Below, piece by piece: positions 14,548 to 41,767 of a stretch of DNA of 64,000 nt. Positions within the stretch are counted from its first letter, which is position 1; each line of letters opens with the position of its first letter. This DNA is from SAR86 cluster bacterium (GTDB taxonomy: Bacteria > Pseudomonadota > Gammaproteobacteria > Pseudomonadales > Pseudohongiellaceae). Below the pieces are notes generated by a model that had not been told where the DNA came from, did not search any database, and saw nothing but the letters and a program-made list of their open reading frames with translations. The stretch covers positions 610 through 64,609 of the forward strand of contig NVVJ01000011.1 in assembly GCA_002402175.1 (NCBI GenBank). Direction: 5' to 3'. The position numbers and the translations under genes were made by a program.

Positions 14548-14600
14548 TGTCGAATACAATCCTTATAACAGAGCTAGGATTGAATGACATATGGAAGCTT

Positions 14601-14619: not shown

Positions 14620-14621
14620 AT

Positions 14622-14659: not shown

Positions 14660-14676
14660 GGCAAAAGATGAATATC

Positions 14677-26496: not shown

Positions 26497-27168
26497 CTAT
26501 ATTCTGTAGCAAATTGTATACACGTTGTCTTCAGAGTATAGCGCAGCAAGAACAGCATTATTAGGATTAGTATTGACACCACCACCACCTAAAGTAGCTC
26601 GCAATCTACCAGTCGCACCTAAACCATCGTCAAGCTCACCGTCAATGGATATAGCTGCAGAACCAGGCACCTGACTCAGGCACACTTTAGTTCCTGTAAG
26701 ATTACCACCCATATTGGATGTAGTGACGCCCATGAGTCCGCCCCAGGGGTTTGTAGGTAACGCTAGAACGCCTGCGTCAGCCGGGTTGCCAGAAATAAAT
26801 CCTGCGGCTCTCAAATGCTGCCAGAATTCCTGCGCCTCACCCGCGCCATTAAAAACCTGATTGGTCGCAATTTCTAATCGACCATCGGCATCACCGGCGC
26901 TGACAGCGGCCCATGCAGAACCACGAGCGGCAAGAGTTGCAGCGGGCCCGTCGTCACCCGGAAGGCGGCCATATCTATCTTGATAGGCAAAAAGTGCTGC
27001 GGCTGATCCATTCATGTCTTTCACGGCCTGCTTCACTCGTGAATTGGCAATCAATTCTTGACCTTGCAAAACTCCGCCAACCAAAAGGCCTATAATGACC
27101 AGTACGATGGCTATTTCGATTAGAGTAAAACCCTGTTGCTTCTTCATTGACTTCATTGAACGTTTCAT
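26497..27168 (-). CDS. Prepilin-type (pseudo)pilin, candidate major subunit of the filament locus
   Basis: Class III signal KKQQG/FTLIEIAIVLVIIGLLVGGV. GspG-like YQDRYGRLPGDD. Two C-terminal Cys residues (VCLSQ...TICYRI) could form a D-region disulfide. A shorter leader is possible from ATG 27147. Confidence 0.8.
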   Translation of the reverse strand: MKRSMKSMKKQQGFTLIEIAIVLVIIGLLVGGVLQGQELIANSRVKQAVKDMNGSAAALFAYQDRYGRLPGDDGPAATLAARGSAWAAVSAGDADGRLEIATNQVFNGAGEAQEFWQHLRAAGFISGNPADAGVLALPTNPWGGLMGVTTSNMGGNLTGTKVCLSQVPGSAAISIDGELDDGLGATGRLRATLGGGGVNTNPNNAVLAALYSEDNVYTICYRI

Positions 27169-27230
27169 CGATTTTATCCCCTCGGAATAAAGTTTAACTA
27201 TTTAAAATTCAGTAATTTTTCAGCGTTATT

Positions 27231-27273
27231 CTCAACTGTGACGCCACTATATCTATCGTCCACAAGTGGCGCA
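27231..27273 (-). promoter_or_regulatory. Cluster of CGCCAC/GTGGCG repeats and a weak -24/-12-like element upstream of the pilin gene
   Basis: Minus strand TTGCGCCAC-TT-GTGGAC-GATAGATATA-GTGGCG-TCACAGTTGAG. This gives the inverted repeat CGCCAC/GTGGCG and TGGCGT-N5-TTGAG, in which the conserved -12 GC is not kept. Confidence 0.3.
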
Positions 27274-27288
27274 ATATGTAGGTTTTTT

Positions 27289-28347
27289 TTACACTGCCTT
27301 CGGGAGATTCAAAACGAACGTCATCGGCGCATTTTCTGGCGTTATTGCCACTAATGCCCCTCCAGCGCCTGTAGCTAGCTGCCTGGCGTGATATAGCCCA
27401 ATGCCAAGCCCATCGCCTTTCTCGCTCCAAAACGGCTCAAATAGCCTTTCTGGCCATAAACAAGGGCTGCCGTTAGTATCTTTTATTGAAATTTCTATAT
27501 TTTTCTCTAACTCTTTGATATCTATGCTTATTGAGAGCATTGAGTCAGGATTTCGTCGATTTTGATCAATATAGTTACCAAACAGATTGTCACAGATGCT
27601 GCTCAGAGACTGCTGATTAATCAGGGCATCACCTGTTCCGCTGATATTGACCTTCAGTTCATGTATGTCTGCCGTGGTAAGAAATGCGTCATTCAAGCTA
27701 ATCCTCTCCATATTACTACTGGGTACCGGGCTGGAAAGCGTACTTAAAAACCGGTCCGAGCGCTCGTGTAATGTTGGCATAACCGTTCGCAGGCTATTAA
27801 GTAACTTCTCTTCTTTACCCTGGGGAGTGTTTTCTAGCTGGTCTGCTACAAGAGAAATCAATTGTACGATGTTCTTCATATCGTGTTGCAGAAACACGCT
27901 GAGCTTCGCTGTTTGTGCAAAGGCGCCTTGCACAGTACCCAGTTTCACCCACATGTCGGTGTACAAAAGCAGGAAAAAACTTTCTGATAATATGTTGCTG
28001 AAATATCTCTGCTCAAAGCGTCGCTTGCCATCGTATAAATTTACCACCAGCGTTATGTCATCAACCTCTAGTTTACGATGAATAAAAACCTCACCTTCCT
28101 TACCCAGAGTTTTTGAAAGCGTTGAACCGAACCAGTCCAAATGCCAACTGATACCCATGAAACCTGCTTTTTCCAAAGGCTCCCAGCAGTGCCTTAGGAA
28201 ATCGGGCAAATCAAATTCAAGCTGCTCATTGAGATTCACTAATTCGTTGGTAATACGAGCACGACGAGTTGCCTGCCTCAGCAACCAGGATGTCGCTAAT
28301 ATGATACTAATACCGATTAAAATCAGATAAGGGTAAAGACTAGCCAT
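27289..28347 (-). CDS. Membrane-anchored histidine kinase without a periplasmic sensor domain
   Basis: Single N-terminal TM LYPYLILIGISIILATSWLL. H-box FLQHDMKNIVQLISLV. HATPase G-boxes GDGLGIGLYHARQL. ATG 28347 overlaps the RR stop by 8 nt (gATGGCTAG). Confidence 0.8.
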   Translation of the reverse strand: MASLYPYLILIGISIILATSWLLRQATRRARITNELVNLNEQLEFDLPDFLRHCWEPLEKAGFMGISWHLDWFGSTLSKTLGKEGEVFIHRKLEVDDITLVVNLYDGKRRFEQRYFSNILSESFFLLLYTDMWVKLGTVQGAFAQTAKLSVFLQHDMKNIVQLISLVADQLENTPQGKEEKLLNSLRTVMPTLHERSDRFLSTLSSPVPSSNMERISLNDAFLTTADIHELKVNISGTGDALINQQSLSSICDNLFGNYIDQNRRNPDSMLSISIDIKELEKNIEISIKDTNGSPCLWPERLFEPFWSEKGDGLGIGLYHARQLATGAGGALVAITPENAPMTFVLNLPKAV

Positions 28348-29011
28348 CGTCACGTTTGATACCAAATTTTTTCAGAAAATAGTAGATGCTCTCTCGTTTT
28401 AGCCCAAGCCTCGCTGCACTTTGATACACGTTAAATCCCGTGTCTTTTAATACATGACGCACCAGCTTTTCCTCCGCTTCCTCACGTACGGCTTTCAATC
28501 CATCCGCCACTCTCGCATTGATCTGTAGGCGCGTTAGACCTTCGGTGTCAGATAGGGTTTTCTCATTCTCGAAAAACATCACCGCTCTTTGTACAGAGTT
28601 TAAAATAGCTTCGGAACGAGAAGGCTTGGACAAAAAATCAAATGCCCCCTCTTTAATGGCCGCCAGAGCAGAGCTTTCCTCATCCTGCCCGGTAAGCACG
28701 ACTATTTTTGCTGGGTGCAACTGTGCAATCACAGACTTGATAACCGCCAGTCCCTCGACAGTGGTGTGGGGCGACGGAGGCAAACCGAGATCAAGAATGA
28801 TAACTGCAATTCCAGAGTCGGATTTTAAAATGGCCTCTGCACTAAGTTTGCTATCTGCTTCTTGTACGTGATATCCCTTAATCTCCAAGACATTTCGAAG
28901 TATGTGCCGCAAAGCCGGATCATCTTCGACCAGCAGAATTTTCGCAATATTCTCGCTCTCAGCTTTCTCTGCATTATTGTCAGGAGAGTTATTATCAGAT
29001 TGTTTGTTCAA
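28340..29011 (-). CDS. Response regulator, REC plus Fis-type HTH, lacking an AAA+ sigma54-activation domain
   Basis: REC domain KILLVEDD, VIILDLGLPPSP, FDFLSKP. C-terminal HTH_8-like NVYQSAARLGLKRESIYYFLKKFGI. At 223 aa there is no room for an AAA+ module. Only a TTG start is available, at 29011. Confidence 0.8.
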   Translation of the reverse strand: MNKQSDNNSPDNNAEKAESENIAKILLVEDDPALRHILRNVLEIKGYHVQEADSKLSAEAILKSDSGIAVIILDLGLPPSPHTTVEGLAVIKSVIAQLHPAKIVVLTGQDEESSALAAIKEGAFDFLSKPSRSEAILNSVQRAVMFFENEKTLSDTEGLTRLQINARVADGLKAVREEAEEKLVRHVLKDTGFNVYQSAARLGLKRESIYYFLKKFGIKRDDG

Positions 29012-29058
29012 TTCTATGCCTTACGATTTCGAATGAGAAAGACAACAGGAGTATTAGA

Positions 29059-29802
29059 TTAGGGCAATTGACCGGCTGCAATCATTCTAGTGAACAATAT
29101 GCCCGGAGAAATCCATGTAACCAGGTCGTCAAACGTATCTTCGATATATGCGCTTTGTACAAAGTCATCGTCATTAGGTAAACGATAGCCATTAAGTGTT
29201 CTCTCTCCTGAGTTTTCTGTCTCATCTACATCGGCCCCGGTAAAATCTACCCAGTCGGCACCTAGAGACATAATCACCACGGGAACCGCATCGGCAATTA
29301 CAGTTCCGCAGGCGGCCGCGTCACAGACTCGAAAAGTCGGGGCCATTGCTGCTATTCCCACACCTCTAATACCATTAGAGGTGGTAAATGCATCACCGTT
29401 AGAATCGCTGACCGAATAACGATAAGCGCCCAGCCATTTATCCATTAGTAATCCATTAATATCGAGCGCACCACTGAGCCCCAGTGTTGCTGATGGAACA
29501 AGGCCATGTTCTTCCGTGCATGCGCCTCCACCTACAGGTACTTCGGCGCCGTTACTGGTTGGAGTTGCCGGGCATGGCAACCTGCCCGTAGCTTGAGCAT
29601 AGCCATAAAGGGCTTCAACAATATCATCAAGTTTTGCTTCAGCATTGCGGCGGTTGTTCATTTCCTGAGTCTGGCTCAGTGAAATTAGTAAACCACCCAA
29701 TAGTGTAGACACGATGACTAAAACAATAGCCATCTCAATAAGACTAAACCCTAAAGAAGATTTTGCACTTTTAATTTTATTTCTCCTTGTCGTCGTTAGC
29801 AT
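29059..29802 (-). CDS. Prepilin-type minor (pseudo)pilin
   Basis: SSLG/FSLIEMAIVLVIVSTLLGGLL cleavage-methylation motif. YAQATGRLPCPA motif. Four Cys residues. Confidence 0.8.
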   Translation of the reverse strand: MLTTTRRNKIKSAKSSLGFSLIEMAIVLVIVSTLLGGLLISLSQTQEMNNRRNAEAKLDDIVEALYGYAQATGRLPCPATPTSNGAEVPVGGGACTEEHGLVPSATLGLSGALDINGLLMDKWLGAYRYSVSDSNGDAFTTSNGIRGVGIAAMAPTFRVCDAAACGTVIADAVPVVIMSLGADWVDFTGADVDETENSGERTLNGYRLPNDDDFVQSAYIEDTFDDLVTWISPGILFTRMIAAGQLP

Positions 29803-30725
29803 CGCACACCAGCTTTACTAATACCGGGCACTCCAACATTAAGCGTATAGACAATATTGCAATTACTAAACGCTAACGTGGCACTGTCAGCTGTTACTTG
29901 CGTGTATAGGGTATTTAACACCCACGTATTCGCCCCAATCCACGCTGGCGCAGCACCCATTGCAGTGATAAATTCAGCTTGATCCAAGGGATAGATCCCA
30001 TTTAACACATGAAATACATTCAACTCTAGCTTCATGGCTTCTGCAACTCGTGCAGAAACTGGTGATAAGATCTCACTAGTTGTTATCGTCAAGACTCTGT
30101 CATTAAAATTTTCTGGGTCAAGTGCATCACTGCTTACATAGGTTGGGCCGGCGACATTATCAGCTTCAAGATAATTCGCACTGGTATTGTTCCCTCTAAG
30201 TTGCACTCCAGTAGCCCCGCCGGGAGCAATCAGAATAGCTGCTATCCCTCCTTGCCCATCAAGAGATAAATTACCGTTTGATGTTGTATTCAAAATTCCT
30301 GTTGGACTTCGCTTGAAATCGTCTGACAACGTATACCAGAATTGTTCATCAATGCCACTATTGAAGTTTGAAAATGAGAACACTGCCGCAGATGGAAGTA
30401 TTATCGAGACAGGAAGACGCCCAAGGGAATTACCTGGACATGGCGAATCTTCGATACCATCTCCATTGGTGTCGGGACAAATTAAACGCCCCGGGGCTCC
30501 ATCCGTAGCCGAGTAATAATCACCATGCAATACGGCGTAGGCTATTAGCGCATCCTTTGCGTCACGCATAGCCAACATAACATTGCTGTCGCGTTGTCGT
30601 GTCAGTATATTGTTATCGAATATCACAAGAATTGCACTGGTGCTGGCAAGAACAAAAACGATCATTAATACAATAAGTATGACGCCGCGCTGCCGAACTG
30701 CTGGCGCAGAAACAAGCCTAGTCAT
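29796..30725 (-). CDS. GspK/PilX-like pilin-related protein (no canonical G/F-x-x-x-E site)
   Basis: The N-terminus VRQRGVILIVLMIVFVLASTSAIL resembles the GspK QRGVAL... start. GRLICPD and LGRLP motifs are shared with the neighbouring pilins. Confidence 0.55.
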   Translation of the reverse strand: MTRLVSAPAVRQRGVILIVLMIVFVLASTSAILVIFDNNILTRQRDSNVMLAMRDAKDALIAYAVLHGDYYSATDGAPGRLICPDTNGDGIEDSPCPGNSLGRLPVSIILPSAAVFSFSNFNSGIDEQFWYTLSDDFKRSPTGILNTTSNGNLSLDGQGGIAAILIAPGGATGVQLRGNNTSANYLEADNVAGPTYVSSDALDPENFNDRVLTITTSEILSPVSARVAEAMKLELNVFHVLNGIYPLDQAEFITAMGAAPAWIGANTWVLNTLYTQVTADSATLAFSNCNIVYTLNVGVPGISKAGVRC

Positions 30726-31330
30726 TGTGTAATATCTCGAATTTCCTGTGCTTGTTCAATCAACACCTGAACGTCTTCTTCGCGAACTGGCAGTTCTTGC
30801 TCGCGAACAATCTCTGATTCATCTACAACGTCGGCTACAGCACGATATTGATAGGATTCATACAACTGACCTGTAGTCAGGTTTAGAACCTGACCTGGTT
30901 TTAAATGAAAGCTGACATTGGAATCAGGGTCATGAATTCGAAGCTGTCCTTTATTGAAAGGCGTTAACAACTGAATGTTTTCTGGTAAGTTGTCCTGATC
31001 ATATGACTGATTATTTATCCAAACGGTATAGCGGCCATCGCTGCGCAACATGGCACCCCCTACACTATAAATAATGTCTTCTAGCTCTCCATTGTCGAGC
31101 TCGGTAACATTTGGAAGCTGTGCTATGTCGGTTAGAATCTCAGTTACGGATTCTGGATGTAAAGAACCATTTCGCAAGCGGTCCAGTTCAGCTCGTAAAG
31201 CAGGTGTGCTAAACAAACGCTGTAACGATTGAGCACTGACAAAGCTCGGCCACAATAGTGCTAAGACCGCCGTTGTGATTGCAGTAATTGCCTGTATCTT
31301 ATGCCTGTTGTTATTCAAATACATAAGCAC
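30722..31330 (-). CDS. Secreted periplasmic protein in the PilP/MshK/GspC position
   Basis: 202 aa with signal peptide AVLALLWPSFVSA/Q. ATGA overlap with the next gene. No motif recognisable by eye. Confidence 0.4.
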   Translation of the reverse strand: MLMYLNNNRHKIQAITAITTAVLALLWPSFVSAQSLQRLFSTPALRAELDRLRNGSLHPESVTEILTDIAQLPNVTELDNGELEDIIYSVGGAMLRSDGRYTVWINNQSYDQDNLPENIQLLTPFNKGQLRIHDPDSNVSFHLKPGQVLNLTTGQLYESYQYRAVADVVDESEIVREQELPVREEDVQVLIEQAQEIRDITQ

Positions 31331-31339
31331 TCTTGCTCT

Positions 31340-31999
31340 CTATTCATCGTATCCAAACGCGTCTGGCCCAGTATTGGATTCTCGTCGTAATGTGTACCAG
31401 GTAAATTCACACGTAGCCACCTGGTGCTCCACAAATTCGAGTAAATTTCTGCCATCAAGCAAGGTAGCAACAATGGTGCATTCGTTGCTTACCATTAGCC
31501 TTCCTGTGTTTAGAAAATCAGCCAGGAAGCGAGTCAGATCTTCCTCGTGTAGAAGTGGCAAGCGGATCTGTACAATACTACTACGCAGAGAAATATCTTC
31601 GTCGGGGTAATCTATACCCTCTTCGTAAAGTAGCGGCTGACTATTTTGCTCTCTCACATCAACATCAATAGGAAACAATTGATATTTGTTACGTATATTT
31701 CGAATATCTTCAAGTAGGGAAACTCGGTCTTCATCTGCCATGATTTGATTAGCGGTCATAGTGTTAAAACGATCTATGTTTTCAACTATTATTCTTTCCG
31801 ATGACTCAATTTGTCGTATTTCCTGTGATATCACATCAAAGTCTGTAAGAATCCCGTTTTCGAGTCGCCGCATCTCTCCCTGATAATAGAACGCCCCCCA
31901 ATAAATAGCAGTCGATACAGTTATTGCAAAAAGCAGCAACAGTATCCACCACTTAAGCCATTGCAAATCTTCGCTTCTTTGACGTTGGTGTGAGGCCAT
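31340..31999 (-). CDS. Bitopic inner-membrane protein, PilO/GspM/MshJ-like
   Basis: 219 aa. Short cytoplasmic N-terminus, TM WWILLLLFAITVSTAIYWGAFYY, predicted coiled-coil, then a globular periplasmic domain. Confidence 0.45.
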   Translation of the reverse strand: MASHQRQRSEDLQWLKWWILLLLFAITVSTAIYWGAFYYQGEMRRLENGILTDFDVISQEIRQIESSERIIVENIDRFNTMTANQIMADEDRVSLLEDIRNIRNKYQLFPIDVDVREQNSQPLLYEEGIDYPDEDISLRSSIVQIRLPLLHEEDLTRFLADFLNTGRLMVSNECTIVATLLDGRNLLEFVEHQVATCEFTWYTLRRESNTGPDAFGYDE

Positions 32000-32001
32000 A
32001 A

Positions 32002-33534
32002 TCAGCTATCGAACCTCACATTCAATGAAAACTCCAGATCTAGTATTTCGTCACCAACAATGGTGTTCAATGATGCATTAGCGCCTGACTCTATAGGCAG
32101 TTTTATAGGCGTAACAGTTGCTCCCTCAATCAAATTTAGAGAATTTATAAAACTCTTTAACTCCGTGTCGGAGTTTTCAAAACTGCTACTGCCAACCTGA
32201 CTTCCGTTGAGTTCAATGTTCACTGATGTACTGTCAGTCAACAGCGCATCAGTAAGGCTTGAATCCACCTGGTCTGAGACAAGCTCCCAGGTAACAGAAG
32301 TCAGCGTGATTGCAGAATAACCCTGAATTGCCCTACTTATTGCAGCAAGCAGATCTGTGGGTTGTTGCATCTGACCCCGAATTAACTCGTAGTTGCTAAC
32401 TGCAAGTTCCATGGCTTCGGAAGGTATAGGGGTTTCAGGAAACTGCGCACGTAAGGCATCATATTGATCCCGCACCGGCAATAAGCTCTGGCTTAAGCCG
32501 AAGTAATTGTTCCTTCTTTCTAAGGCATCATTCAAAGCAGGGGCGCTTAACACCCCACTCAATACCATAAATAATACACAGCTCAATACGATGAGGTTGC
32601 GGGCTTGTTTAAGCTCTTTGAAACGAAGTGCCGCAGGTGATGCATATATGTTTCCAAATTTTCCTGTTCGAACCCCCCAGTCAAGACATAACAGTATCGC
32701 TGTAATTTCGTTCTGAGGACCCCCATATTGATCAATAGGCATTAAATCAATTGAGTTGTGATGCTCCACTCTACCAAATTGGCTCGTATCAGCATTGTCA
32801 TCAAATGCGTGGTCTTCAAGCACTGGAGTCACTACGTGTAAGTCCAATTGTTGAGCATTCTTTAATAGTCCAATTCGGTCTAAATATTCTTTAGATTGGA
32901 GTGAAGCAGTCATTATAACTCCCACGAGGTCTGAGTCATGACCGGAGGGCAGCGGTGTAAGCCGGCTAAAAATTAATTTGTCATTGGCGATTAACGACTG
33001 GCGTATCCCGTTTCTTTGCCAGTTGACCAGAAGAATTTCATCACTTGTAACTAGACCTAGCTCTTTCGCAACTTTACATATAGCAAACGCTGGGCTTGTA
33101 ATACTCTTTATTGATATTTCCTGTTCCAATAACAGGCTTACCCAGCCATCTATATTCTGGGACTGTGTGAGCGCGCTGAATAGAACTCTATCATCCCGCC
33201 TGCCAGATTCTTCTCTTCCTAACACTTTAGCTGAACAATATTCTATATTTCGAAAATGCTGATCCATCTTTCTTTCCAGGAAAGACTTACGATCAAAACT
33301 ATTTACATGCGCCACTTTTTCAACAATAAAATCCTCGGCGGGAGAGTCAACCACTACAGTCACAGCAGAAGGTTTGTTCTCGGCTAAATAGTGTTGAAAT
33401 TCCTCATGTCCAAACTCATCTTCTGAGAAAGTAGCTAGCTTCATCAAGCGAGAATTATCCAGGCCATAGATTGCCAAACCCTCAAAATTTATGAGAATAA
33501 TCCGGCGCTCTGAAGACTTAAAAAATCCGAACAT
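32002..33534 (-). CDS. PilM-PilN fusion-like (MshI/GspL-like) assembly protein
   Basis: 510 aa. About 315 aa cytoplasmic domain, one TM (LIVLSCVLFMVLSGVLSAPAL), and about 175 aa periplasmic domain. The architecture matches MshI/GspL. Confidence 0.5.
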   Translation of the reverse strand: MFGFFKSSERRIILINFEGLAIYGLDNSRLMKLATFSEDEFGHEEFQHYLAENKPSAVTVVVDSPAEDFIVEKVAHVNSFDRKSFLERKMDQHFRNIEYCSAKVLGREESGRRDDRVLFSALTQSQNIDGWVSLLLEQEISIKSITSPAFAICKVAKELGLVTSDEILLVNWQRNGIRQSLIANDKLIFSRLTPLPSGHDSDLVGVIMTASLQSKEYLDRIGLLKNAQQLDLHVVTPVLEDHAFDDNADTSQFGRVEHHNSIDLMPIDQYGGPQNEITAILLCLDWGVRTGKFGNIYASPAALRFKELKQARNLIVLSCVLFMVLSGVLSAPALNDALERRNNYFGLSQSLLPVRDQYDALRAQFPETPIPSEAMELAVSNYELIRGQMQQPTDLLAAISRAIQGYSAITLTSVTWELVSDQVDSSLTDALLTDSTSVNIELNGSQVGSSSFENSDTELKSFINSLNLIEGATVTPIKLPIESGANASLNTIVGDEILDLEFSLNVRFDS

Positions 33535-33542
33535 GCCTGCCC

Positions 33543-34748
33543 TTATAGCTGCATACTGCCAATTGAGTCATACACGGGACCCATTACCGAAACCATAACC
33601 CAGCCCAATATTCCACCCAGAAGAACGGTCATCGCAGGCTGTATAAGCGCCTGGACTTTTTCTATTGAGTCTTTGATATCTCGTTCATAGAAATAACTTA
33701 CATTCAGAAGTGCCTGGTCTAACTGACCTGTTGTTTCCCCCACTCGTATCATCCTTACCACTAACGGCGGGAACAACCCGGTATTGTGAAAACTGTCAGA
33801 CACGCCATTGCCATCCTGAATTTCTTCTCGAGCTTTTTTTAGGGCATATCTAATCGCCTCATTGCCCGACACTTTTTCAGTAATTTCAATGCAACGCAAA
33901 ACGGGAATTCCAGCCTTGTACATCATGGCAAACAGGTTAGCGAAACGAGCCAGAATTATCTTTTTAAGAACAGGACCAATTTGCCAGGCGCGCAGCTTGA
34001 ATGCATCTACCTGATATCTTATATCAACACTAACAGCCATGAGGACTCGAAGTATTATAAATAGCACTATTGGAATCAAGGTAAAGAGATACCAATAGTT
34101 AACAAAGAAATTGGAGGTAGCAATAAGTGCTTTCGTATGCGCAGGCAATTCCTGCCCTATGCCTTCAATAAAACTGACTAATTGTGGAACCAGATAAACC
34201 ATTAGGAAGCCAACAACCGCAAATACCACACCGCCAACGAATGCTGGAAATATTAATAATTTTTTTGTAGTGGATATTAATTCATCCTGCCACTTTATCA
34301 TTTCATTTAATGATAGAAACACATCCGGTAATTGACCGCTCTCTTCCCCCGCTGCGATTAAATTAACGAATAAATCATCGAATACTTTGGGGTGCTCTCC
34401 TAAGGCCTGAGACAAGGTTTTACCGGTTTCAATGCTGTCAATTATTTGAGCAATAATTCGACGAAACGCTGCCTGCTCAACACTGTCTCGTAGATCAACC
34501 AGGCCATCAATAATCGATACGCCAGAACGAGTTAGTTGCTCCATATGGAAGCAGAAATTTATCAGGTCTATTCGACGAATATTTCCAGCACCGCTCAATA
34601 TTGACTTGTCTTCAACAAATTTGCACTTAATGAGATCCATGCTCATATGGCTCAGGCGTATTTCCAGATCTGCCTCATTCGCTGCATCCAGCTTGCCGCT
34701 ATGGGACCGCCCCTGAGAATCTATAGCTTTGTAAGTAAATAATGCCAT
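33543..34748 (-). CDS. GspF/PilC/MshG-family inner-membrane platform protein
   Basis: 401 aa. The N-terminus MALFTYKAIDSQGRSHSGKL is typical of the family. Two T2SSF repeats and three TM segments. Confidence 0.9.
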   Translation of the reverse strand: MALFTYKAIDSQGRSHSGKLDAANEADLEIRLSHMSMDLIKCKFVEDKSILSGAGNIRRIDLINFCFHMEQLTRSGVSIIDGLVDLRDSVEQAAFRRIIAQIIDSIETGKTLSQALGEHPKVFDDLFVNLIAAGEESGQLPDVFLSLNEMIKWQDELISTTKKLLIFPAFVGGVVFAVVGFLMVYLVPQLVSFIEGIGQELPAHTKALIATSNFFVNYWYLFTLIPIVLFIILRVLMAVSVDIRYQVDAFKLRAWQIGPVLKKIILARFANLFAMMYKAGIPVLRCIEITEKVSGNEAIRYALKKAREEIQDGNGVSDSFHNTGLFPPLVVRMIRVGETTGQLDQALLNVSYFYERDIKDSIEKVQALIQPAMTVLLGGILGWVMVSVMGPVYDSIGSMQL

Positions 34749-34754
34749 CTTAGC

Positions 34755-36491
34755 TCACACACCAATTCGATCAGTAAGGTCCACCACTCGAGTAATCTCC
34801 TCAAGACTGGTAGTGCCATCAAGTACACGGCGACAGGCGTCGTCGGCCAAGGTACGAAAACCACCTTGTGCTGCCGCCTTTTGCAAAGCATGAGCAGGAG
34901 TACCTTCGGAAATAAGCCTTTGTAAGTCATCACCAATTTGAAGTATTTCTACAATTGCGGTTCTACCTTTGTAGCCCACATGATCACAATCAGGACAACC
35001 AACTGCACGATAAATTTGCGGCGCTTTATCCGTGTCGCTAATGCCCAATAGTTTTCCTTCCAGTTCATCGACATCATGTGATTCTTTACACTTGATACAT
35101 AATTTTCGTAGCAATCGCTGAGCAATAATTCCAATTAAGTTTGCAGATAAAATATCGGGTAGCACGCCAAGGTCTGATAACCGGGGAACGGACCCTACGG
35201 CAGAATTTGTATGAAGTGTAGAGAATACCTGGTGGCCAGTCATGGCTGCACGAAACGCCATTTCTGCAGTGATATCGTCTCTAATTTCTCCCACTAGAAT
35301 GACATCCGGATCTTGCCGCATCATAGATCGAATACCTTCAGCAAAACCCATTTTCGCGGCAGAATTAATCGATGTCTGCCGGATCATAGGCATCGGATAT
35401 TCAACGGGGTCTTCCATCGTCATGATATTGATTGCTTCCGTGTTTATATGGCTAAGCACAGAATAAAGCGTGGTTGTTTTACCGCTGCCGGTAGGACCGG
35501 TTACCAGAATTACTCCCTCTGGCTTAGCCAACATCATTTTGATGGCATATAAATTTTCTTCACTTAGTCCCAAAGAGTCCAGAGGTACAATACCAGTTCT
35601 TCGATCTAGAATTCTCAGGACAACATTCTCGCCATAAGAAGTAGGTTGCGCTGCAACCCTGAAATCAATCTTCCTTCCTATCAGGGTTAGCGAAATACGC
35701 CCGTCCTGGGGCGCCCTGGATTCGGCTATATTCATATTGCTGATTACTTTCAACCTGACAACCATTGCCGGCCAATAACTTTTATGAATACTTCTGACCT
35801 GCCGCAACACACCGTCTATTCGATAACGAATCCGAAGAAAAGCTTCTTCCGGCTCGAAGTGAATATCAGATGCTCCCTGCTGCACTGCATCCGCTAACAG
35901 GGCATTAATCAGGCGGACCATCGGATGACTGTATTGATCGCCTTCTGTTTGCAGGCTATCAAGATCGACTTCACCTGTTTCAATTTCCTGAAGAATTCCA
36001 TCTATTGAAAGATCGAATCCGTAAACCTCTTCGATTATTGTGGTTATATCAATTTCGCTGCCAAGCACAGGGGTGATTTTCAGAGTGTTGTCATGCAGTG
36101 CCCGAATTTGATCCAGAGCAACAATGTTATAAGTGTCTGGCATTGCCACACTCAATTCATTCAGATGAGCACTGTAAGACAGGGGCAAAATTTTATAGCG
36201 CCGCGCCATATCCTGTGGAACCATCTTGAGCGCTTCAGCGCCAATAACCGCGCCGGTCAAATCAACTGTAGAAAATCCGGTATTTTCGGACAAGGCATCA
36301 CGAATAATTGAATCGGTTACGAATCCTAGCTGGATAAGCACCGCACCAATTCTCAAGCCCATTGATTCCTGCTCGCGTAACGCAATCATCAATTGATCTC
36401 TGGTGATAATGCCTTTGTCGATGAGTGCATCACCAAGTTGCTTCTTGCCAGTCCTTGGTTTTTTCGCAGCAGTTTGAGTTTGTTCTGTCAT
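34755..36491 (-). CDS. GspE/MshE-family assembly ATPase with N-terminal MshEN-type domain
   Basis: Walker A GPTGSGKTT, Walker B DPDVILVGEIRD, His box GHQVFSTLHTNSA, tetracysteine CIKCK...CPDCDHVGYKGR. N-terminal motifs QLGDALIDKGIITRDQLMIALREQ and RIGAVLIQLGFVTDSIIRDALSEN. Confidence 0.9.
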   Translation of the reverse strand: MTEQTQTAAKKPRTGKKQLGDALIDKGIITRDQLMIALREQESMGLRIGAVLIQLGFVTDSIIRDALSENTGFSTVDLTGAVIGAEALKMVPQDMARRYKILPLSYSAHLNELSVAMPDTYNIVALDQIRALHDNTLKITPVLGSEIDITTIIEEVYGFDLSIDGILQEIETGEVDLDSLQTEGDQYSHPMVRLINALLADAVQQGASDIHFEPEEAFLRIRYRIDGVLRQVRSIHKSYWPAMVVRLKVISNMNIAESRAPQDGRISLTLIGRKIDFRVAAQPTSYGENVVLRILDRRTGIVPLDSLGLSEENLYAIKMMLAKPEGVILVTGPTGSGKTTTLYSVLSHINTEAINIMTMEDPVEYPMPMIRQTSINSAAKMGFAEGIRSMMRQDPDVILVGEIRDDITAEMAFRAAMTGHQVFSTLHTNSAVGSVPRLSDLGVLPDILSANLIGIIAQRLLRKLCIKCKESHDVDELEGKLLGISDTDKAPQIYRAVGCPDCDHVGYKGRTAIVEILQIGDDLQRLISEGTPAHALQKAAAQGGFRTLADDACRRVLDGTTSLEEITRVVDLTDRIGV

Positions 36492-38383
36492 TCTGCTTGC
36501 ATCCTACTTGTGTTTGTCAGGCGATTGCGTACAAGTTGCACATCAAAACCCGCAGGATGAACTGCAGAAAACTCCAGGGCCTGTTGGTAATAGGTTTGTG
36601 CCGAGCGCACCTGATTCAAATGCTCAAGGCTTACGGCCAGGTTAAAAGCATAGTCAGGGTTTACCTGCCCGGCCTCCAATGCGTTCGTTTTTGCGAGTTG
36701 TAATGCATTAAAATAGGCCTGCTGCGCCTCAGGCCATCGTTGTTGCAAAGCCAAAAAATTTCCCAGGGCATAAGCCAGAGGTGCTACAGATGGATGCTCC
36801 GCAACCAATCGCTTCAACTCTGCCTCCTGCTGCTGAGGCGTCCCGGACGGCATGATTTTCGACAAACCGACGCGAGCGACAGGGTCACTGGGGTCACGTG
36901 CTATTAATCTTGAATAGAGCTCTATTGCCTGAGATGTTTCATTGTTTATTACCGCAATAGTGGCTAGGCCAAGAAGTGCGTTTCGATGAAGAGGAGAGTT
37001 CACTAATACTTGCTGGTATAGACTTTTTGCCTGTTCCAGAGAACCCGCCTGATAGGCGCTATACGCCTGAGATGCCAATGGATTAATGCTGCTGGTTGTT
37101 ACCCGATGAGAGAAGCTGATTAGATTAACCGGCTCAGCCAAATCAGTCGGCATACTCAGCTCAGTCTGACCTACAGAGGATATCGCTAAGTTTGCATCGC
37201 CTAATGAAGTATCCGCAGGCACGGTCGAATTTTCTTCGATGGTGTTATCAGGCTCAACCGATATTGACTCATTCAGCTCCGCTACTGTAACCACATTAAC
37301 CGGAATGTTTGAATCCTCAATAGGCGGCTCATTTACTACAGCGATATCTTCAGTGTTATCGCGCTCAATTACTCCAGAGATGGAATTTTCAATTTGCACA
37401 CTATCAATTTGTACGTCTTCAGTAGTTGCGACAAAGGTGTCGAGGCCAGGTTCTTCGATTTCAGAATTCACTACCGCAGAATCAATAACATTAGTATCGC
37501 TAACCGATGACGTAGAAAAATCACGCGCAGCATAAGAATTCAAAGGAATGACTATTCCACTAGTGTTGTTTAACTCCGTATAGAGATAAATTCCAAAACC
37601 TAATACTACAATTACAACAGCAGTACCGGCGACTTGAAATTTCTGCTTTGGTCCAAAGGGCATCTTTTTCGCCGCAAATACACTTTTAGCTGAACGCCTG
37701 TCCCGGTCACTAGAGCCATGGGCGGCCTGAGTTTTTAGAGCATCAGCATCTAAAGGGCGACCTGGCGTAGCCGCCTGATTTTTCAGTTGCCTACTTGCGA
37801 TCTCAGCATTTTTCTGTGCTACTGCGGCAGTAACTGTGTCTCGCAGTTCAAGTTCACTCGGCAATGCTTCATGAACTTGTGCATTGTCATCGGTCGGTTC
37901 TTCGGATTCGGCTACAGGCTCATCAAATTGGCCCTTTGTGCTTTCAAACGAATAAGGCAATGTAATAACATTTACTGTCTCAGCTTCTGTCTTAGTCTTT
38001 ACCTCAGCACTACTATCTGGTGCATCCTTTTCGCTAATCTCTTCCTTCACCTGTGCTGTAATGTTTGTATCGGGTAGCTCAGGTTCAGAATAAGCTCCTA
38101 CTTTTTCTGCATTCAAAACAGAGGGGCTATCTTGCACGTCTTCGACGGCATCATCTGCCTCAAATTCAATTGTGGTGTCTAGTTTGATTTTCGAATCGAT
38201 GGGGGAGTCTTCAACAGCTAAAATATCGAGCGTCGGTGACACTGTTGTTGGGGCATCAGCTACGGCTAGGAGTTCTTCCGTTTGCGTCACTTCGGCCTCA
38301 ACCGTCATATTGAGCTTACTGTCTTGCTCGGCCTTTTTCTTTGCTTGCTCGGCCTTGCGCAACGCGTCCATTAGTAAACTCAT
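36488..38383 (-). CDS. Bitopic TPR protein with GspB-like N-terminus (MshN position)
   Basis: N-terminus MSLLMDALRKAEQAKKKAEQ. Long acidic cytoplasmic linker. TM AVVIVVLGFGIYLY. C-terminal TPR repeats (AYQAGSLEQAKSLYQQVL..., ALGNFLALQQRWPEAQQAYFNAL...). Confidence 0.65.
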   Translation of the reverse strand: MSLLMDALRKAEQAKKKAEQDSKLNMTVEAEVTQTEELLAVADAPTTVSPTLDILAVEDSPIDSKIKLDTTIEFEADDAVEDVQDSPSVLNAEKVGAYSEPELPDTNITAQVKEEISEKDAPDSSAEVKTKTEAETVNVITLPYSFESTKGQFDEPVAESEEPTDDNAQVHEALPSELELRDTVTAAVAQKNAEIASRQLKNQAATPGRPLDADALKTQAAHGSSDRDRRSAKSVFAAKKMPFGPKQKFQVAGTAVVIVVLGFGIYLYTELNNTSGIVIPLNSYAARDFSTSSVSDTNVIDSAVVNSEIEEPGLDTFVATTEDVQIDSVQIENSISGVIERDNTEDIAVVNEPPIEDSNIPVNVVTVAELNESISVEPDNTIEENSTVPADTSLGDANLAISSVGQTELSMPTDLAEPVNLISFSHRVTTSSINPLASQAYSAYQAGSLEQAKSLYQQVLVNSPLHRNALLGLATIAVINNETSQAIELYSRLIARDPSDPVARVGLSKIMPSGTPQQQEAELKRLVAEHPSVAPLAYALGNFLALQQRWPEAQQAYFNALQLAKTNALEAGQVNPDYAFNLAVSLEHLNQVRSAQTYYQQALEFSAVHPAGFDVQLVRNRLTNTSRMQAE

Positions 38384-38427
38384 GGGCTTGTCTCTGTATT
38401 CTGATTTTTACACACGATGTATATGAA

Positions 38428-40044
38428 TTAAAATGTAAGAAGCGATTTTTGAGCAGCAGTATTACCCGCGCTAACCGGCAAGTATTCTCTATATTCTTGA
38501 AAATCTGCATTAATACTGGCTCGCTTTATCACTGTCGGTCGAATAAATATTATTAACTCTGTTTTAACTGTATTTCTGTCTTTGATACCAAACAAACCAC
38601 CAATAATGGGCAGTCGGTTCAAACCTGGAAGACCGGTGTTACTATAATCTATAGTATCCTGCATCAAGCCGCCCAAGATAGCGATCTGGCCGCTATCAAC
38701 TTTAAGAATAGATTCAATCTCTCTAATCTGGATTTCCGGAATCGAGCTGATGACACCGGCGTCTGCAAGTGCTGGATTCGGATCATCGACGAAACGAATG
38801 ATTCGTGAAATTGTTGGTCGAACATTCAGCGTAACCTGATCGTTCTGACTTATCTGTGGCGTAACCGCCATGGTAAATCCTACTGGAACACTATGTACTT
38901 CACTGGTGTATACTGTAGGAGTTCCTGGCCCCGCTGCACTGGCCGCTGTTCCCGCCTCTACTTCTATAGTGAAATAAATTCGGTTATCTACAACCCGCAA
39001 CATAGCAGTCTGATTATTAAGCGCCATCAACTTGGGACTCGACAATACTTGTGTATCGCCAAACTGTGACAGCAGCTTTATGGTTGCGCTGATCGCGTCA
39101 GGCCCCGCGCTCTTGTCTATTGTCAATACATTTGTCGGAGTATCATCTAATTCAAGCCCAAGCAAATCCTGACTAAAGCTGACTTGTCCATTATCCCTTG
39201 CTAGCAGAGACCAATCGACACCAGATCTAAAACGATCATTCAGGTTTACCTCTACTATTGTCGCTTCAATCAACACTTGAAACAGCGCTCGAGTGCGAAC
39301 TGATTCAATAAAATCGTATATTTCGCGATGCTGGCGACTATTAGCACGTACCGTCACTAACCCACTTTCTGGACTGACTATAACCGAACGAGTACCACCT
39401 TCATCATCTATCGATTCTCCCAGAATAGCAGAGAGATTTTCCTGCAGCGTTTGCCAGAAATCATTGCTAGAAGCCTGGGTTAGAACACTAGTCGAAACAT
39501 TCGTATCGTCCTCACCTACGCCAGTTGAAACACTTACCACTGACTGTGCACTTCTAGAAACATTAACATAGTCAATTCGATAACTACGCAGTCCAGGCAA
39601 GTCAGGCTCCACAATTAAGTAATCTGCGCGCTCAAAATTCCAGCGGATGTCTATTTGCCGAGAAATACGATCGAGTATTTGAGGTAAAGTCTGATCAATT
39701 ACATTGAGGCTAACTGCTCCTCTCACATCAGTGTGCACATCGACATTTATACCTGCATCTCGCGCCATAGCAAATAGCAACTCCGACACTTGAACATCCT
39801 GAACCACCACCGAATACAACTCCAGTTGCGGCACAATCTGCGGCGCAGCCACTACTGGTAATGGTCTGACAATATCAGGAATACCAACTGACGAAATCGG
39901 TTCCGCAACTGACAAATGCCGACCCGAATCTGGTCGATTCTGAATTTGTTCTTTTTCCCCATTAGTCAGGTTATTACACGCCGTTAGTAGCGGCAATCCA
40001 GTAATAAGCAAAACAATTTTCCAATAGTTTTTCGACATACCCAT
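38428..40044 (-). CDS. MshL-type secretin lipoprotein
   Basis: Lipobox LLTAC. N-domain block YSVVVQDVQVSELLFAMARDAGINVDVH...LPQILDRISRQIDIRW. C-terminal secretin core LPIIGGLFG...TELIIFIRPTVI. Confidence 0.85.
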   Translation of the reverse strand: MGMSKNYWKIVLLITGLPLLTACNNLTNGEKEQIQNRPDSGRHLSVAEPISSVGIPDIVRPLPVVAAPQIVPQLELYSVVVQDVQVSELLFAMARDAGINVDVHTDVRGAVSLNVIDQTLPQILDRISRQIDIRWNFERADYLIVEPDLPGLRSYRIDYVNVSRSAQSVVSVSTGVGEDDTNVSTSVLTQASSNDFWQTLQENLSAILGESIDDEGGTRSVIVSPESGLVTVRANSRQHREIYDFIESVRTRALFQVLIEATIVEVNLNDRFRSGVDWSLLARDNGQVSFSQDLLGLELDDTPTNVLTIDKSAGPDAISATIKLLSQFGDTQVLSSPKLMALNNQTAMLRVVDNRIYFTIEVEAGTAASAAGPGTPTVYTSEVHSVPVGFTMAVTPQISQNDQVTLNVRPTISRIIRFVDDPNPALADAGVISSIPEIQIREIESILKVDSGQIAILGGLMQDTIDYSNTGLPGLNRLPIIGGLFGIKDRNTVKTELIIFIRPTVIKRASINADFQEYREYLPVSAGNTAAQKSLLTF

Positions 40045-40045
40045 T

Positions 40046-41767
40046 TTACTCCAATGTCAGGGCGGCAATTATGTTGTTTGCATTGCACTCAACACTGCTC
40101 ATATTTTGAACAAATGGCTTGTAACCATAAATAGGCGCGGGCAACTTATCGATAAATTCCTGCGCCAGGCTTAAACCATTGAAATTTCCATATTTGATGG
40201 TCCAGTACCCATTACTACCATCCGTAGACATGCACACATAGGATTCAGAAATTAGGTCTGCTTGTTCCAGCACTCTCAGAAAGGATTCTGCAAACTCTAG
40301 ATCGCCGGTCTCACCTGAGACAAACTGAACCGTATAGCTATCTCTATTTGTCGCTTTTAGCCAGTCTATAGAAGCGATCACTCGCTCCTGAACATGATTC
40401 CGCTCAATAGAAGTCGGCCTTTTTTCGCCTTGATCCGCTTCGCTATAGGTATTTAATTCCAGATTACTAAGCTGCTCATTTGTTACAACAGCGCCTTCGA
40501 TGAGTTCAACTTGATCAATGCTTACATAAATTGTGTTTTTGTCGTTAGTGTCAGCGGCGCCACTGTCTACCTCTGCAAGCCTGCGATCGACTATTTCACT
40601 TTTCTCTTCATTAAGAGTTGAAGCGTCCTCTATGACTTGTGGTGCAGATTTATTTTCGAAGGAACCCGAAGTAGATTCAATTTTCTCTGAAGTATTCGAA
40701 GAGAGCTCGGTAGTAATATTGCCCGCAAGGAACTCCTCCGGCAGATTGCCTAAGGTATTCACAGCTGCAAAGTTGTTTGGCCCAGGCTCAACCGACGCCT
40801 GATATCGCTCATCAATAACATCGGATTCCAACCACATTAGTAACGTAAACGCCATGAGGGCCACTACTACGCCGGCGCTTAACATGCGAAATGGAGATAG
40901 AAGGTTATGGAAAATAGGAGATATACAGTCGCTGTCCTGAATCGCCGCATAAACATGCCGCCAACCAATCATCGGTGCTGTCCCAGAGTTTAGCTCGGTA
41001 AATTCCAGTACATTGCCTGCATACGCTGCGAGTAATGCTTTATCTACCAGTATATTTATACGCCGAGTTAGCCCTCCTGATGCTTTGGCAAGCAACCATT
41101 CCGCCCCTGGAGTTAGTAATTGTGGGCACGGACATCCCGCCGCCCCGAGGCGAAAACGTACATATTCAGAAACCTGAGTAGTCGTCAGAGGATTCAGATG
41201 AAAACTGTGAGTAATCCGCTCTCGAAGCTGCCTAATGTGTTTTACGCTAAGGTTTTTATCCAGCTCTGGCTGACCAAATAAAATTATTTGCATCAACTTG
41301 TCACGATGAGTTTCCAGATTACTGAAAAGACGAATCTCTTCCAATGTGTCAACTGGCATACCCTGAGCTTCTTCAATAATTACCAGTACTCTTCGGTTCG
41401 CTCCATGTTGTTTTAACAGGTAGTTTTGCAACTGCTGCATTACTAACAACTTTGAAGTATCTCTACGTACAGGTAATTTAAGCTCAAATGCTACTGCGTA
41501 TAAAATTTCATCAGGGCTCAAATTTGGATTAGCCAAATACACCACTTCTGTGGAATCTGGTAAGCGTTCTTCCAGCATGCGGCATAACATTGTTTTCCCG
41601 CTGCCAACTTCACCAACAACCTTCAGTATGCCTTCGCCGCTTTCAATGGCGTACAGCATTGCTTCCAGTACTACTCCCCTACCCTGATGCCCGCCCGGAA
41701 AAAACAGCGATGTATCGGGTGTGATACGAAAAGGATGTCGCTCAAGCGAAAAGTAGTCCAGATACAT
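40046..41767 (-). CDS. ExeA/MshM-family AAA+ ATPase fused to a TM segment and a periplasmic SPOR-like domain
   Basis: Walker A GEVGSGKT, Walker B VLVIIEEAQ, TM AGVVVALMAFTLLMWL. The C-terminus YTVQFVSGE...GYWTIKYGNFNGLSLAQEFIDKL resembles a SPOR fold pattern. Confidence 0.75.
   Translation of the reverse strand: MYLDYFSLERHPFRITPDTSLFFPGGHQGRGVVLEAMLYAIESGEGILKVVGEVGSGKTMLCRMLEERLPDSTEVVYLANPNLSPDEILYAVAFELKLPVRRDTSKLLVMQQLQNYLLKQHGANRRVLVIIEEAQGMPVDTLEEIRLFSNLETHRDKLMQIILFGQPELDKNLSVKHIRQLRERITHSFHLNPLTTTQVSEYVRFRLGAAGCPCPQLLTPGAEWLLAKASGGLTRRINILVDKALLAAYAGNVLEFTELNSGTAPMIGWRHVYAAIQDSDCISPIFHNLLSPFRMLSAGVVVALMAFTLLMWLESDVIDERYQASVEPGPNNFAAVNTLGNLPEEFLAGNITTELSSNTSEKIESTSGSFENKSAPQVIEDASTLNEEKSEIVDRRLAEVDSGAADTNDKNTIYVSIDQVELIEGAVVTNEQLSNLELNTYSEADQGEKRPTSIERNHVQERVIASIDWLKATNRDSYTVQFVSGETGDLEFAESFLRVLEQADLISESYVCMSTDGSNGYWTIKYGNFNGLSLAQEFIDKLPAPIYGYKPFVQNMSSVECNANNIIAALTLE

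Follow-up and report, generated by a model that had tools for sequence, protein, structure and literature searches.

We analysed a 64,000-nucleotide stretch of DNA from a SAR86 cluster bacterium of the family Pseudohongiellaceae (contig NVVJ01000011.1 of assembly GCA_002402175.1), hereafter the window. Positions 26497-41767 hold 13 close-packed minus-strand open reading frames (ORFs), here called g01 to g13. The locus encodes an intact type IV pilin filament machine, a rearranged and hitherto unstudied system distantly related to the mannose-sensitive haemagglutinin (MSH, MSHA) pilus. A previous reading of the letters without database searches (the sequence-only reading) had marked out the same block, and the ORF listing of the window returned exactly its coordinates. 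The genes are as follows.

40046-41767, minus: g01, MshM/ExeA-like AAA+ ATPase, 573 amino acids (aa); AAA+ at residues 1-256, membrane span at about 289-318, C-terminal SPOR (peptidoglycan-binding) domain
38428-40044, minus: g02, secretin of the MshL type, 538 aa; lipoprotein signal with an LLTAC lipobox (read from the sequence), Pfam Secretin, 128.6 bits
36488-38383, minus: g03, bitopic tetratricopeptide repeat (TPR) protein at the MshN position, 631 aa; membrane span at 249-267, repeats at about 430-606 with matches to several Pfam TPR families
34755-36491, minus: g04, extension ATPase of the GspE/PilB/MshE class, 578 aa; N-terminal MshEN domain of the type that binds cyclic di-GMP (c-di-GMP), CxxC...CxxC motif
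33543-34748, minus: g05, inner-membrane platform of the GspF/PilC/MshG family, 401 aa; Pfam T2SSF twice, 172 bits
32002-33534, minus: g06, predicted PilM-PilN fusion, 510 aa; actin fold at about 10-290, membrane helix at 314-332, periplasmic alpha/beta domain at 409-509
31340-31999, minus: g07, bitopic inner-membrane protein at the MshJ/PilO/GspM position, 219 aa; span at 14-32, LLHEEDL motif, two conserved cysteines
30722-31330, minus: g08, secreted periplasmic protein at the MshK/PilP position, 202 aa; signal peptide, LxRLFSTPxxRAELDRLR motif, conserved core, variable acidic tail
29796-30725, minus: g09, pilin-like protein without Glu5 (QRG followed by VILIV), 309 aa; 58-residue N-terminal helix, invariant PGxLPCPD, conserved cysteines
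29059-29802, minus: g10, prepilin (G followed by FSLIE), 247 aa; Pfam N_methyl, ANGRLPCPA, C-terminal FDDxxxWxS...AGQLP
28340-29011, minus: g11, response regulator, 223 aa; receiver (Response_reg, 75.3 bits) and Fis-type HTH_8 (25.7 bits), no sigma-54 AAA+ domain
27289-28365, minus: g12, histidine kinase, 358 aa; Pfam HATPase_c, single N-terminal membrane span, no periplasmic domain
26497-27168, minus: g13, major prepilin, 223 aa; leader MKRSMKSMKKQQG followed by FTLIE, mature protein of 210 aa; Pfam N_methyl, 35 bits

From the ORF coordinates, the intergenic gaps measure 1, 44, 6, 8, 2, 9, 47 and 120 nt, and neighbouring ORFs overlap by 4, 4 and 7 nt. The g12 and g11 frames also overlap, by 26 nt from the longest TTG start of the kinase or by 8 nt if the start is that of the 352-aa gene call on an identical public contig. 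Pfam or NCBIfam domains support nine of the 13 ORFs (all except g06 to g09), and orthologues occur in the same order; we therefore regard them as genuine genes rather than chance frames. All 13 are intact. Domain and blastp matches uphold the earlier assignments of the AAA+ protein, the secretin, the MshE-type ATPase, the GspF platform, the regulator, the kinase and the two prepilins.

Secretin, motor, platform and alignment proteins

The MSH reference was the Aeromonas caviae KAM479 locus, canonical although without annotation, with the order mshH-I-J-K-L-M-N-E-G-F-B-A-C-D-O-P. According to TXSScan, mshA, E, G, L and M are mandatory and form a single locus, and all MSH loci are without a prepilin peptidase (PMC6668835). 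The reference sequence, NZ_AP026896.1 ('pKAM479_3', 4.94 Mb), is an Aeromonas caviae chromosome filed as a plasmid; several multi-megabase chromosomes of Acinetobacter and E. coli are filed likewise, which is a trap for plasmid statistics.

The g01 protein has a Pfam AAA_22 domain (102.7 bits) and is 41% identical to Aeromonas MshM over 256 aa (blastp, E 4e-57). Its best NCBIfam model, TIGR03015 (XrtA-associated ATPase), is also the best model for canonical MshM. The SPOR domain was matched in the C-termini of 20 of 22 g01 orthologues, with 19.8 bits in the window protein against a cut-off of 21. This domain and the membrane span set g01 apart from the 295-aa Aeromonas MshM. The same plan of AAA+ domain, span and peptidoglycan-binding domain is seen in ExeA, a type II secretion system (T2SS) protein whose peptidoglycan-binding domain is of another type than SPOR.

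On the NCBIfam models, the secretin g02 scores 239.7 bits for MshL (TIGR02519, cut-off 250.2), 160 for GspD and 92 for PilQ. On the MshL model, Aeromonas MshL scores 279, the orthologue of the distant locus L031 scores 270 and passes, and that of L036 scores 240. In blastp, g02 matches MshL with 145 bits (26% identity, E 1e-40) versus 67 bits for GspD. The platform g05 is likewise nearest to MshG (195 bits, 31.5% identity), followed by PilC (162), GspF (137) and HofC (103). MshM is the nearest blastp reference of g01, and g01 and g05 qualify as the MshM and MshG components.

The extension ATPase g04 matches Pfam T2SSE (429.5 bits) and MshEN (46.8 bits) and passes the NCBIfam c-di-GMP motif model NF053729 (60.4 bits, cut-off 38). 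Its closest PDB matches are PilF, PilB and GspE (E 1e-113 to 1e-125), and the nearest ATPase clusters carry generic names such as 'GspE/PulE family' or 'secretion system protein E'. The binding of c-di-GMP by MshE and its effect on pilus production have been described (PMC4624765). On the GspE and PilB models g04 scores 528 and 518 bits, both below cut-off, as does Aeromonas MshE (524 and 526). Canonical Aeromonas MshG scores higher on the GspF model (330) than on the PilC model (307). The Aeromonas proteins MshE, MshG, MshM and MshL share the NCBIfam score pattern of g04, g05, g01 and g02; since canonical Msh proteins score alike, the GspE and GspF top matches of g04 and g05 do not discriminate between the systems. 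The T2SS equivalog cut-offs are all missed by a wide margin (GspD 160 vs 351, GspE 528 vs 630, GspF 297 vs 424, GspG 30 vs 89), and those of the type IVa pilus are missed as well (PilB 518 vs 676, PilQ 92 vs 284).

The g03 protein is the least conserved of the thirteen (median identity 41%). The sequence-only reading had described a TPR protein with a GspB N-terminus. The repeats are confirmed; for the GspB part, Pfam returned TPR families only at E <= 0.01, and E. coli GspB gave no significant match. As references for ExeA and ExeB, GspA and GspB of E. coli K-12 were set aside because they have diverged too far. The position of g03, together with the MshN/TadD homology described in PMC6668835, suggests a role in secretin assembly.

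The genes g06 to g09 gave nothing significant in searches of Pfam and NCBIfam, of Pfam with family-alignment members, of PDB profiles and with hhalign, where the references for g07 to g09 were single sequences (Aeromonas MshJ and MshK, and E. coli GspK). For g06, which has no Pfam or NCBIfam match, an AlphaFold2 model built on a 73-sequence alignment (mean predicted local distance difference test, pLDDT, 86.6) consists of an actin-like domain, then a long membrane helix, and an alpha/beta domain at the C-terminus. Foldseek matched it to PilM (5eox, E 2.7e-12), to the cytoplasmic domain of GspL (1yf5, E 1.1e-8) and also to FtsA. By its predicted fold, g06 is a PilM-PilN/GspL-like fusion, as had been proposed from its sequence, and its domain plan is the same build as in MshI and GspL. 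The fusion distinguishes the locus from the type IVa pilus, in which PilM, N, O and P are separate proteins.

The g07 protein is conserved in all related loci. It gave no Pfam match at E <= 5 with family alignment members, no PDB sequence match and no significant hhalign alignment with Aeromonas MshJ; its position and topology suggest a PilO/GspM/MshJ-like role, on the same grounds as in the sequence-only reading. The g08 protein, searched in the same way (Pfam at E <= 5 with family alignment members, PDB, hhalign against Aeromonas MshK), gave no significant match, and its position suggests a PilP/MshK-like role.

Taken together with the reference, the locus shares with MSH a single locus without prepilin peptidase or retraction ATPase, an MshM-like AAA+ protein, a lipoprotein secretin of MshL type, a TPR protein in the place of MshN, an ATPase with the c-di-GMP-binding-type MshEN domain, and a platform nearest to MshG. 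The MshI-J-K block has its parallel in a PilM-PilN-type protein and the two small envelope proteins after it. No Peptidase_A24 domain was found among the scanned ORFs of the locus and window, in line with the peptidase-free single locus of MSH, and no PilT-type ATPase was found among the window ORFs examined. The sequence-only reading had taken these two absences as departures from MSH. The absences hold within the scanned ORFs, but they are no deviation, since MSH loci are without the peptidase (PMC6668835) and MSHA pilus production in V. cholerae involves PilT, outside the msh genes (PMC4624765).

The locus does differ from MSH in order and content, as the earlier comparison with the Vibrio-type locus had concluded and as the Aeromonas caviae locus now bears out. 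The window order is M-L-N-E-G and then I-J-K-like, with L and M swapped and the I-J-K block moved. The core proteins are only 26-41% identical, counterparts of MshI, J and K are not recognisable by sequence, and counterparts of MshH, F, B, C, D, O, P and Q are missing from the locus, blastp matching pilin N-termini only. There are just three pilin-like proteins, one with a structurally unmatched head, and a two-component system with a dedicated pilin promoter is embedded in the locus. MSH is the nearest characterised system, albeit a distant one as judged by sequence. The locus has the MSH core in full or nearly so, and it falls outside MSH in gene order, accessory genes and ATPase grouping.

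Pilin-like proteins and the endopilus alternative

The major prepilin g13 is conserved over its whole length, globular part included. The alignment shows the conserved motifs YQDRYGRLPGDDG, FWQHLRAAGF, LPxNPWGG and LDDGxGATGR, plus two cysteines. Identity across the family has a median of 71% and a maximum of 89%. In the distant locus L044, the pilin is 62% identical, the ATPase 54% and the platform 44%. A homologue search gave 5486 matches, the best 120 of which are all at least 59% identical. The major pilin is thus as conserved as the ATPase or more so. In type IV pilus systems the major pilin is usually one of the components that evolve fastest, whereas GspG of the T2SS is highly conserved. 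The conservation of g13 is the strongest argument for an endopilus, or for a filament with a conserved specific partner. Similarity of g13 to the Aeromonas Msh pilins is limited to the N-terminal segment (blastp).

A lone copy of the major pilin gene (65% identical) was seen at 10001-10660 of the Thiomicrospira-like contig L043, between gyrB and recF and near rpmH, rnpA and yidC, with no machinery genes within 10 kb.

The g10 protein is a true prepilin, and we propose a minor-pilin role for it. Its leader and motifs are conserved in 16 orthologues, distant ones included. NCBIfam gave weak GspH and GspG matches at the N-terminus only; across the pilins, these two models match N-termini with 22-33 bits versus cut-offs of 80-89.

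The g09 protein was modelled with AlphaFold2 (pLDDT 91.4, predicted template modelling score, pTM, 0.84) as a pilin-like N-terminal helix with a mixed head domain. A Foldseek search of the model against the PDB found no match to GspK or any other fold (best E = 0.59). In hhalign, the N-terminal 18 residues align with E. coli GspK and nothing beyond. The description of this 309-aa protein as GspK-like therefore stands for the N-terminal segment of QRGV and hydrophobic residues and fails for the head. We propose that g09 is a tip or cap minor pilin.

These proteins bring up the alternative that the locus encodes a T2SS-like system, in which the g13 filament is a short periplasmic endopilus pushing folded proteins through the secretin. 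The locus shares with the T2SS an ATPase, a platform, a GspL-like bitopic protein with an actin fold, a secretin and pilin-like subunits, and its ExeA-like protein with a peptidoglycan-binding domain and the lack of a retraction ATPase in the locus fit such a system too. So do the major pilin, conserved like the motor or more (median 71%; 62% vs 54% for the ATPase in L044), the Glu5-less g09 with its GspK-type N-terminus, and GspE and GspF as the top NCBIfam models for g04 and g05. The GRLP and NPWGG motifs of g13 and FDDxxxW of g10 are short motifs that resemble those of GspG. Moreover, c-di-GMP-binding ATPases are associated with T2SS as well (PMC4624772).

Several results nonetheless speak against secretion. 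Every T2SS equivalog cut-off is missed by far, and canonical MSH proteins score equally on the GspE and GspF models. The secretin is of the MshL rather than the GspD type; in blastp it is nearer to MshL than to GspD, and the platform is nearer to MshG than to GspF. For peptidoglycan binding the locus has a SPOR domain, and g09 is structurally unlike GspK. No Pfam or NCBIfam match to a GspC-like protein was found among the locus ORFs, and GspH, I and J were likewise undetected. No conserved candidate cargo gene adjoins the locus in distant relatives, and pilin-specific two-component control is a trait of type IV pili. We consider the T2SS-like system the main rival to the MSH-related machine, though less likely than it.

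The conserved pilin could also reflect a conserved ligand such as DNA, in which case the locus would build a DNA-uptake (competence) pilus, or serve another specialised type IV pilus function such as motility. Several classes of type IV filaments mediate DNA uptake (PMC6370729). Nevertheless, genes like ComEA, ComEC and DprA, and a retraction ATPase, were absent in and beside the locus, both in the window and in nine distant loci, and no specific evidence favours this function, which we regard as very improbable.

Two-component system and major pilin promoter

The g11 regulator and the g12 kinase sit directly upstream of the major pilin gene, in the 120-nt gap before which the following element was found.

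27246-27293, minus: major pilin promoter; TGTAAAAAAAACCTACAT at 27293-27276 (TGTA-N9-TACA ends), TTGCGC at 27274-27269, 17-nt spacer, TATAGT at 27251-27246

The TGTAAAAAAAACCTACAT sequence lies directly after the g12 stop codon and is followed by the -35 hexamer TTGCGC, 17 nt and the -10 hexamer TATAGT. Its palindromic TGTA-N9-TACA ends are centred near -45 by manual count. The element occurs once in the 64-kb window. Every Pseudohongiellaceae locus with the two-component system carries it in identical or nearly identical form, and it also occurs in the distant locus L033 and before both pilin copies of L036. L036 has two tandem copies of the major pilin gene (16298-17972), each with its own AAAACCTACAT(A/C)TTG promoter element. 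About 940 bp, including the first pilin gene, separate the kinase stop from the second copy; since the element is present there, the kinase reading frame does not account for its conservation. In L026, where g09, g11 and g12 have been lost, the element is degenerate (TGTAGAAACGCAACTTATTGC).

Kinase and regulator genes directly upstream of the major pilin gene are also the arrangement of PilS-PilR in Pseudomonas aeruginosa. In Myxococcus and Geobacter, too, the pil clusters contain the order pilS-pilR-pilA. PilS acts as a sensor of inner-membrane pilin, and PilR switches on pilA through sigma-54 (PMC6058289). The two-component system in the pilin block, which the sequence-only reading had listed as a peculiarity of the locus, is thus present, but PilS-PilR control of pilA is a known precedent.

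Betaproteobacterial relatives share the PilS/PilR/pilA design, with a kinase of 6-7 spans, a sigma-54 activator and GG-N10-GC pilin promoters. L031 and L035, loci of betaproteobacterial type, encode a full sigma-54 activator as their regulator. The L031 and L042 kinases cross the membrane 6-7 times, versus once for g12, and GG-N10-GC sigma-54-type promoters precede the pilin genes of these two loci (TGGCACGCATCTTGC in L031, for example). No sigma-54 activator gene was found within the L042 stretch examined, so that the PilS/PilR-type set of traits is complete in L031 and partial in L042. The window differs in having a one-span kinase, a regulator without sigma-54 AAA+ domain and a sigma-70-like promoter with TGTA-N9-TACA. 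The promoter element co-varies with the regulator type: a conserved TGTA-N9-TACA site and sigma-70 promoter precede every major pilin copy where the short regulator is present, an observation new to this analysis.

From this arrangement we infer that g11 and g12 control the transcription of g13, and that the Pseudohongiellaceae circuit may be a streamlined descendant of a PilS/PilR-like sigma-54 design, as retained in the betaproteobacterial relatives. The nearest NCBIfam models of the pair differ from PilS/PilR as well. They are PrsR for g11 (TIGR02915, 103 bits vs a cut-off of 502.6) and the PrsK C-terminus for g12 (TIGR02916, 62.8 bits vs 300), which belong to PEP-CTERM systems and are matched far below cut-off. 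A PEP-CTERM/exosortase link, raised by the best models of g01, g11 and g12, was considered and rejected because canonical MshM matches the same model as g01, the scores are far below cut-off, and no exosortase or PEP-CTERM genes were seen among the window ORFs examined.

Two further features bound the locus.

41768-41961, minus: intergenic region 5' of g01, with the presumed operon promoter and a hairpin; read from the sequence
26434-26464, minus: intrinsic terminator closing the locus; 9-bp stem (CCCGATTGC ... GCAGTCGGG) followed by T7, read from the sequence

The hairpin list places a terminator-like hairpin for the upstream GST gene at 41922-41904. No promoter of g01 could be defined in this region, which is only partly conserved across orthologous loci, and an Rfam search of the locus found no riboswitch or other Rfam element.

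Distribution, proposed mechanism and significance

A scan with one genome per species returned 29 loci, all from Pseudohongiellaceae. By tblastn with the 13 proteins and the flanking genes, the full 13-gene order with the GST and lspA flanks was present in about 25 of the 29 genomes, which answers the proposal to look for conservation of this exact order. Homologues of g06 come almost exclusively from metagenome-assembled genomes of Pseudohongiellaceae or Pseudohongiella, and those of g06 and g09 are all named 'hypothetical protein' and derive from metagenome-assembled genomes. Median protein identity across the family is 76% for the ATPase and the platform, 75% for the response regulator, 71% for the g13 pilin, 70% for the kinase, 66% for the secretin, 62% for g10, 59% for g01, 46-47% for g06 to g09, and lowest, at 41%, for the TPR protein g03. 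We found no paper on this gene arrangement, nor on any filament system in Pseudohongiella.

Beyond the family, distant relatives keep a core order of secretin, TPR protein, ATPase and platform, then g06-, g07-, g08-, g09- and g10-like genes and pilin, whereas the ExeA-like gene and the two-component system are variably present. This core was found in L031 and L042 (Betaproteobacteria/Burkholderiales-like), L041 (Sedimenticola), L044 (a complete 5.85-Mb 'Pseudomonadota' genome), and the metagenome contigs L033, L034, L036 and L035, the last a contig from the Joint Genome Institute (JGI) with a sigma-54-regulator layout like that of L031 and L042.

Reduced versions of the locus exist. In L026 (OX638378.1, a 6.59-Mb Pseudohongiella genome; about 12198-14876) g09, the response regulator and the kinase are missing, and in L028 (CALSUH010000007.1) g01, g02, g05 and g06 are each split into multiple tblastn fragments, which suggests frameshifts through either real decay or assembly error. 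Such cases could mean that the locus has fallen out of use, as a cryptic gene set or a remnant in decay. In the window, however, all 13 ORFs are intact, the fragmentation of L028 may be an assembly error, and gene order, motifs, promoter and terminator have been kept while the proteins diverged to 40-76% identity, which requires purifying selection. A remnant is the least credible of the explanations weighed here. The locus belongs to the core, has been inherited vertically and is kept by purifying selection; it is not an island and not a remnant.

The sequence-only reading had likewise seen no obvious island, a view now supported by three lines of evidence: the GC content of the locus (0.43-0.46) equals that of its flanks, the only three tRNAs of the window lie far off at 63.4-63.7 kb, and the flanking GST, lspA and histidine-phosphatase genes are syntenic throughout the Pseudohongiellaceae. 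Downstream lie lspA, a histidine phosphatase and a sugar kinase; upstream lie GST, a gene of the DHDPS family, another large ATPase of the T2SSE family and, farther away, rpoA, rpsD, secY and ribosomal protein operons.

Some of these neighbours deserve mention in their own right. The lspA gene (signal peptidase II; 25917-26402, plus strand) is convergent and directly downstream of a locus with a lipoprotein secretin, a synteny kept family-wide. In E. coli K-12 (L038), gspAB/gspC-O adjoin the ribosomal protein operon (rpsJ), and the present locus lies about 6.4 kb from rpoA. The lspA adjacency and the proximity to ribosomal operons are probably coincidences. In the second T2SSE-family ATPase (43733-46225, minus, 830 aa), two stretches match the motif model for c-di-GMP binding of the MshEN type, and the N-terminus weakly matches DUF4388; it has no gene for a platform, a secretin or a pilin beside it. 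In several Pseudohongiellaceae genomes it directly adjoins the GST gene that flanks the locus. As a partner motor for the filament it was rejected because unrelated genes lie between and it is absent from the distant loci. Elsewhere in the window are an unrelated OmpR-type two-component system (12262-14559, minus; HAMP/HisKA/HATPase_c kinase and receiver/Trans_reg_C regulator) and, at 4701-7158 (plus), an MBOAT-family O-acyltransferase followed by an overlapping 365-aa ORF without Pfam match.

Taking the evidence together, we think it probable that the locus encodes a complete and functional filament machine, from a deep lineage related to MSH, that is gated by c-di-GMP, assembles its secretin in an ExeAB/MshMN-like manner and places its pilin under PilSR-like control. 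Its most likely product would be a surface attachment pilus promoted by c-di-GMP; the adhesive function is less certain than the machine itself. In the proposed mechanism, an unlinked prepilin peptidase would process g13 as the major subunit, together with g10 and g09, in the inner membrane, and the Glu5-less g09 plus g10 would prime or cap the filament. Binding of c-di-GMP to the MshEN domain would switch on the hexameric extension ATPase g04, which would drive the platform g05, held by the actin-like cytoplasmic domain of g06. The g06, g07 and g08 proteins would form the trans-envelope alignment complex, and the filament would exit via the lipoprotein secretin g02. By analogy with ExeA/ExeB and MshM/MshN, g01 (AAA+, span, SPOR) and g03 (TPR) may aid assembly of the secretin through the peptidoglycan. 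Finally, g12 and g11 would control the sigma-70 promoter of g13 via the TGTA-N9-TACA site beside its -35 hexamer.

Several observations weigh against such an MSH-related attachment pilus. The window secretin lies slightly below the MshL cut-off (239.7 vs 250.2), and g04 is equidistant from its references, with 38% identity to MshE, 39% to PilB and 44% to GspE. A rough neighbour-joining tree does not group g04 with Aeromonas MshE; g04 and its syntenic relatives form their own clade, apart from the one holding MshE, GspE, HofB and PilB. The tree comprises 100 representatives from a full-database search plus references, and as it is crude and its sampling is biased to g04 matches, we read it only as placing g04 outside canonical MshE. 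In blastp against the Aeromonas locus, g06 to g10 have no sequence similarity to MshI, J, K, O and P, and the roles proposed for g07 and g08 are positional assignments. Neither a prepilin peptidase nor a retraction ATPase was found within the 64 kb examined. In addition, a non-exposed endopilus accounts for the very high conservation of g13, and for its GRLP and PWG motifs of GspG-like kind, at least as well as a surface adhesin does. Surface pilus and secretion endopilus cannot be told apart from sequence, and the earlier view has survived the tests made here: the locus is complete for a type IV filament, combines traits of MSH and T2SS, and is undecidable between pilus and pseudopilus by reading.

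A bolder reading, which we put forward tentatively as possible, makes the locus a separate type IV filament family, sister to MSH and widespread in uncultured marine and sediment Gamma- and Betaproteobacteria. Such a family would possess distinct alignment proteins and a priming complex of two proteins, centred on a pilin whose head has a new fold. It would be coupled to an ancestral PilS/PilR-like circuit that senses pilin, and its filament would probably serve a conserved molecular task different from generic adhesion. On this sister-family reading, a pilin more conserved than the motor would probably reflect a conserved task, for example as a secretion piston or in binding one conserved ligand.

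If the proposed MSH-related machine is correct, an unstudied and broadly distributed branch would be added to the type IV filament superfamily. Its peculiarities are a minimal set of three pilins, one of them with a head without match in solved structures; a major pilin whose evolution is no faster than that of the ATPase, or even slower; and a natural 'before and after' pair for pilin regulation, formed by the Betaproteobacteria and the Pseudohongiellaceae. With g06 to g09, it also contains four gene families for which neither Pfam nor NCBIfam has a model and whose only annotation is 'hypothetical protein'. For filament specialists, the interest lies in the partly novel pilin set, the slow pilin and the regulatory rewiring rather than in a categorically new system. 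Because the locus is part of the conserved core of the Pseudohongiellaceae, a common marine lineage, it likely matters for particle attachment or protein export in these bacteria.

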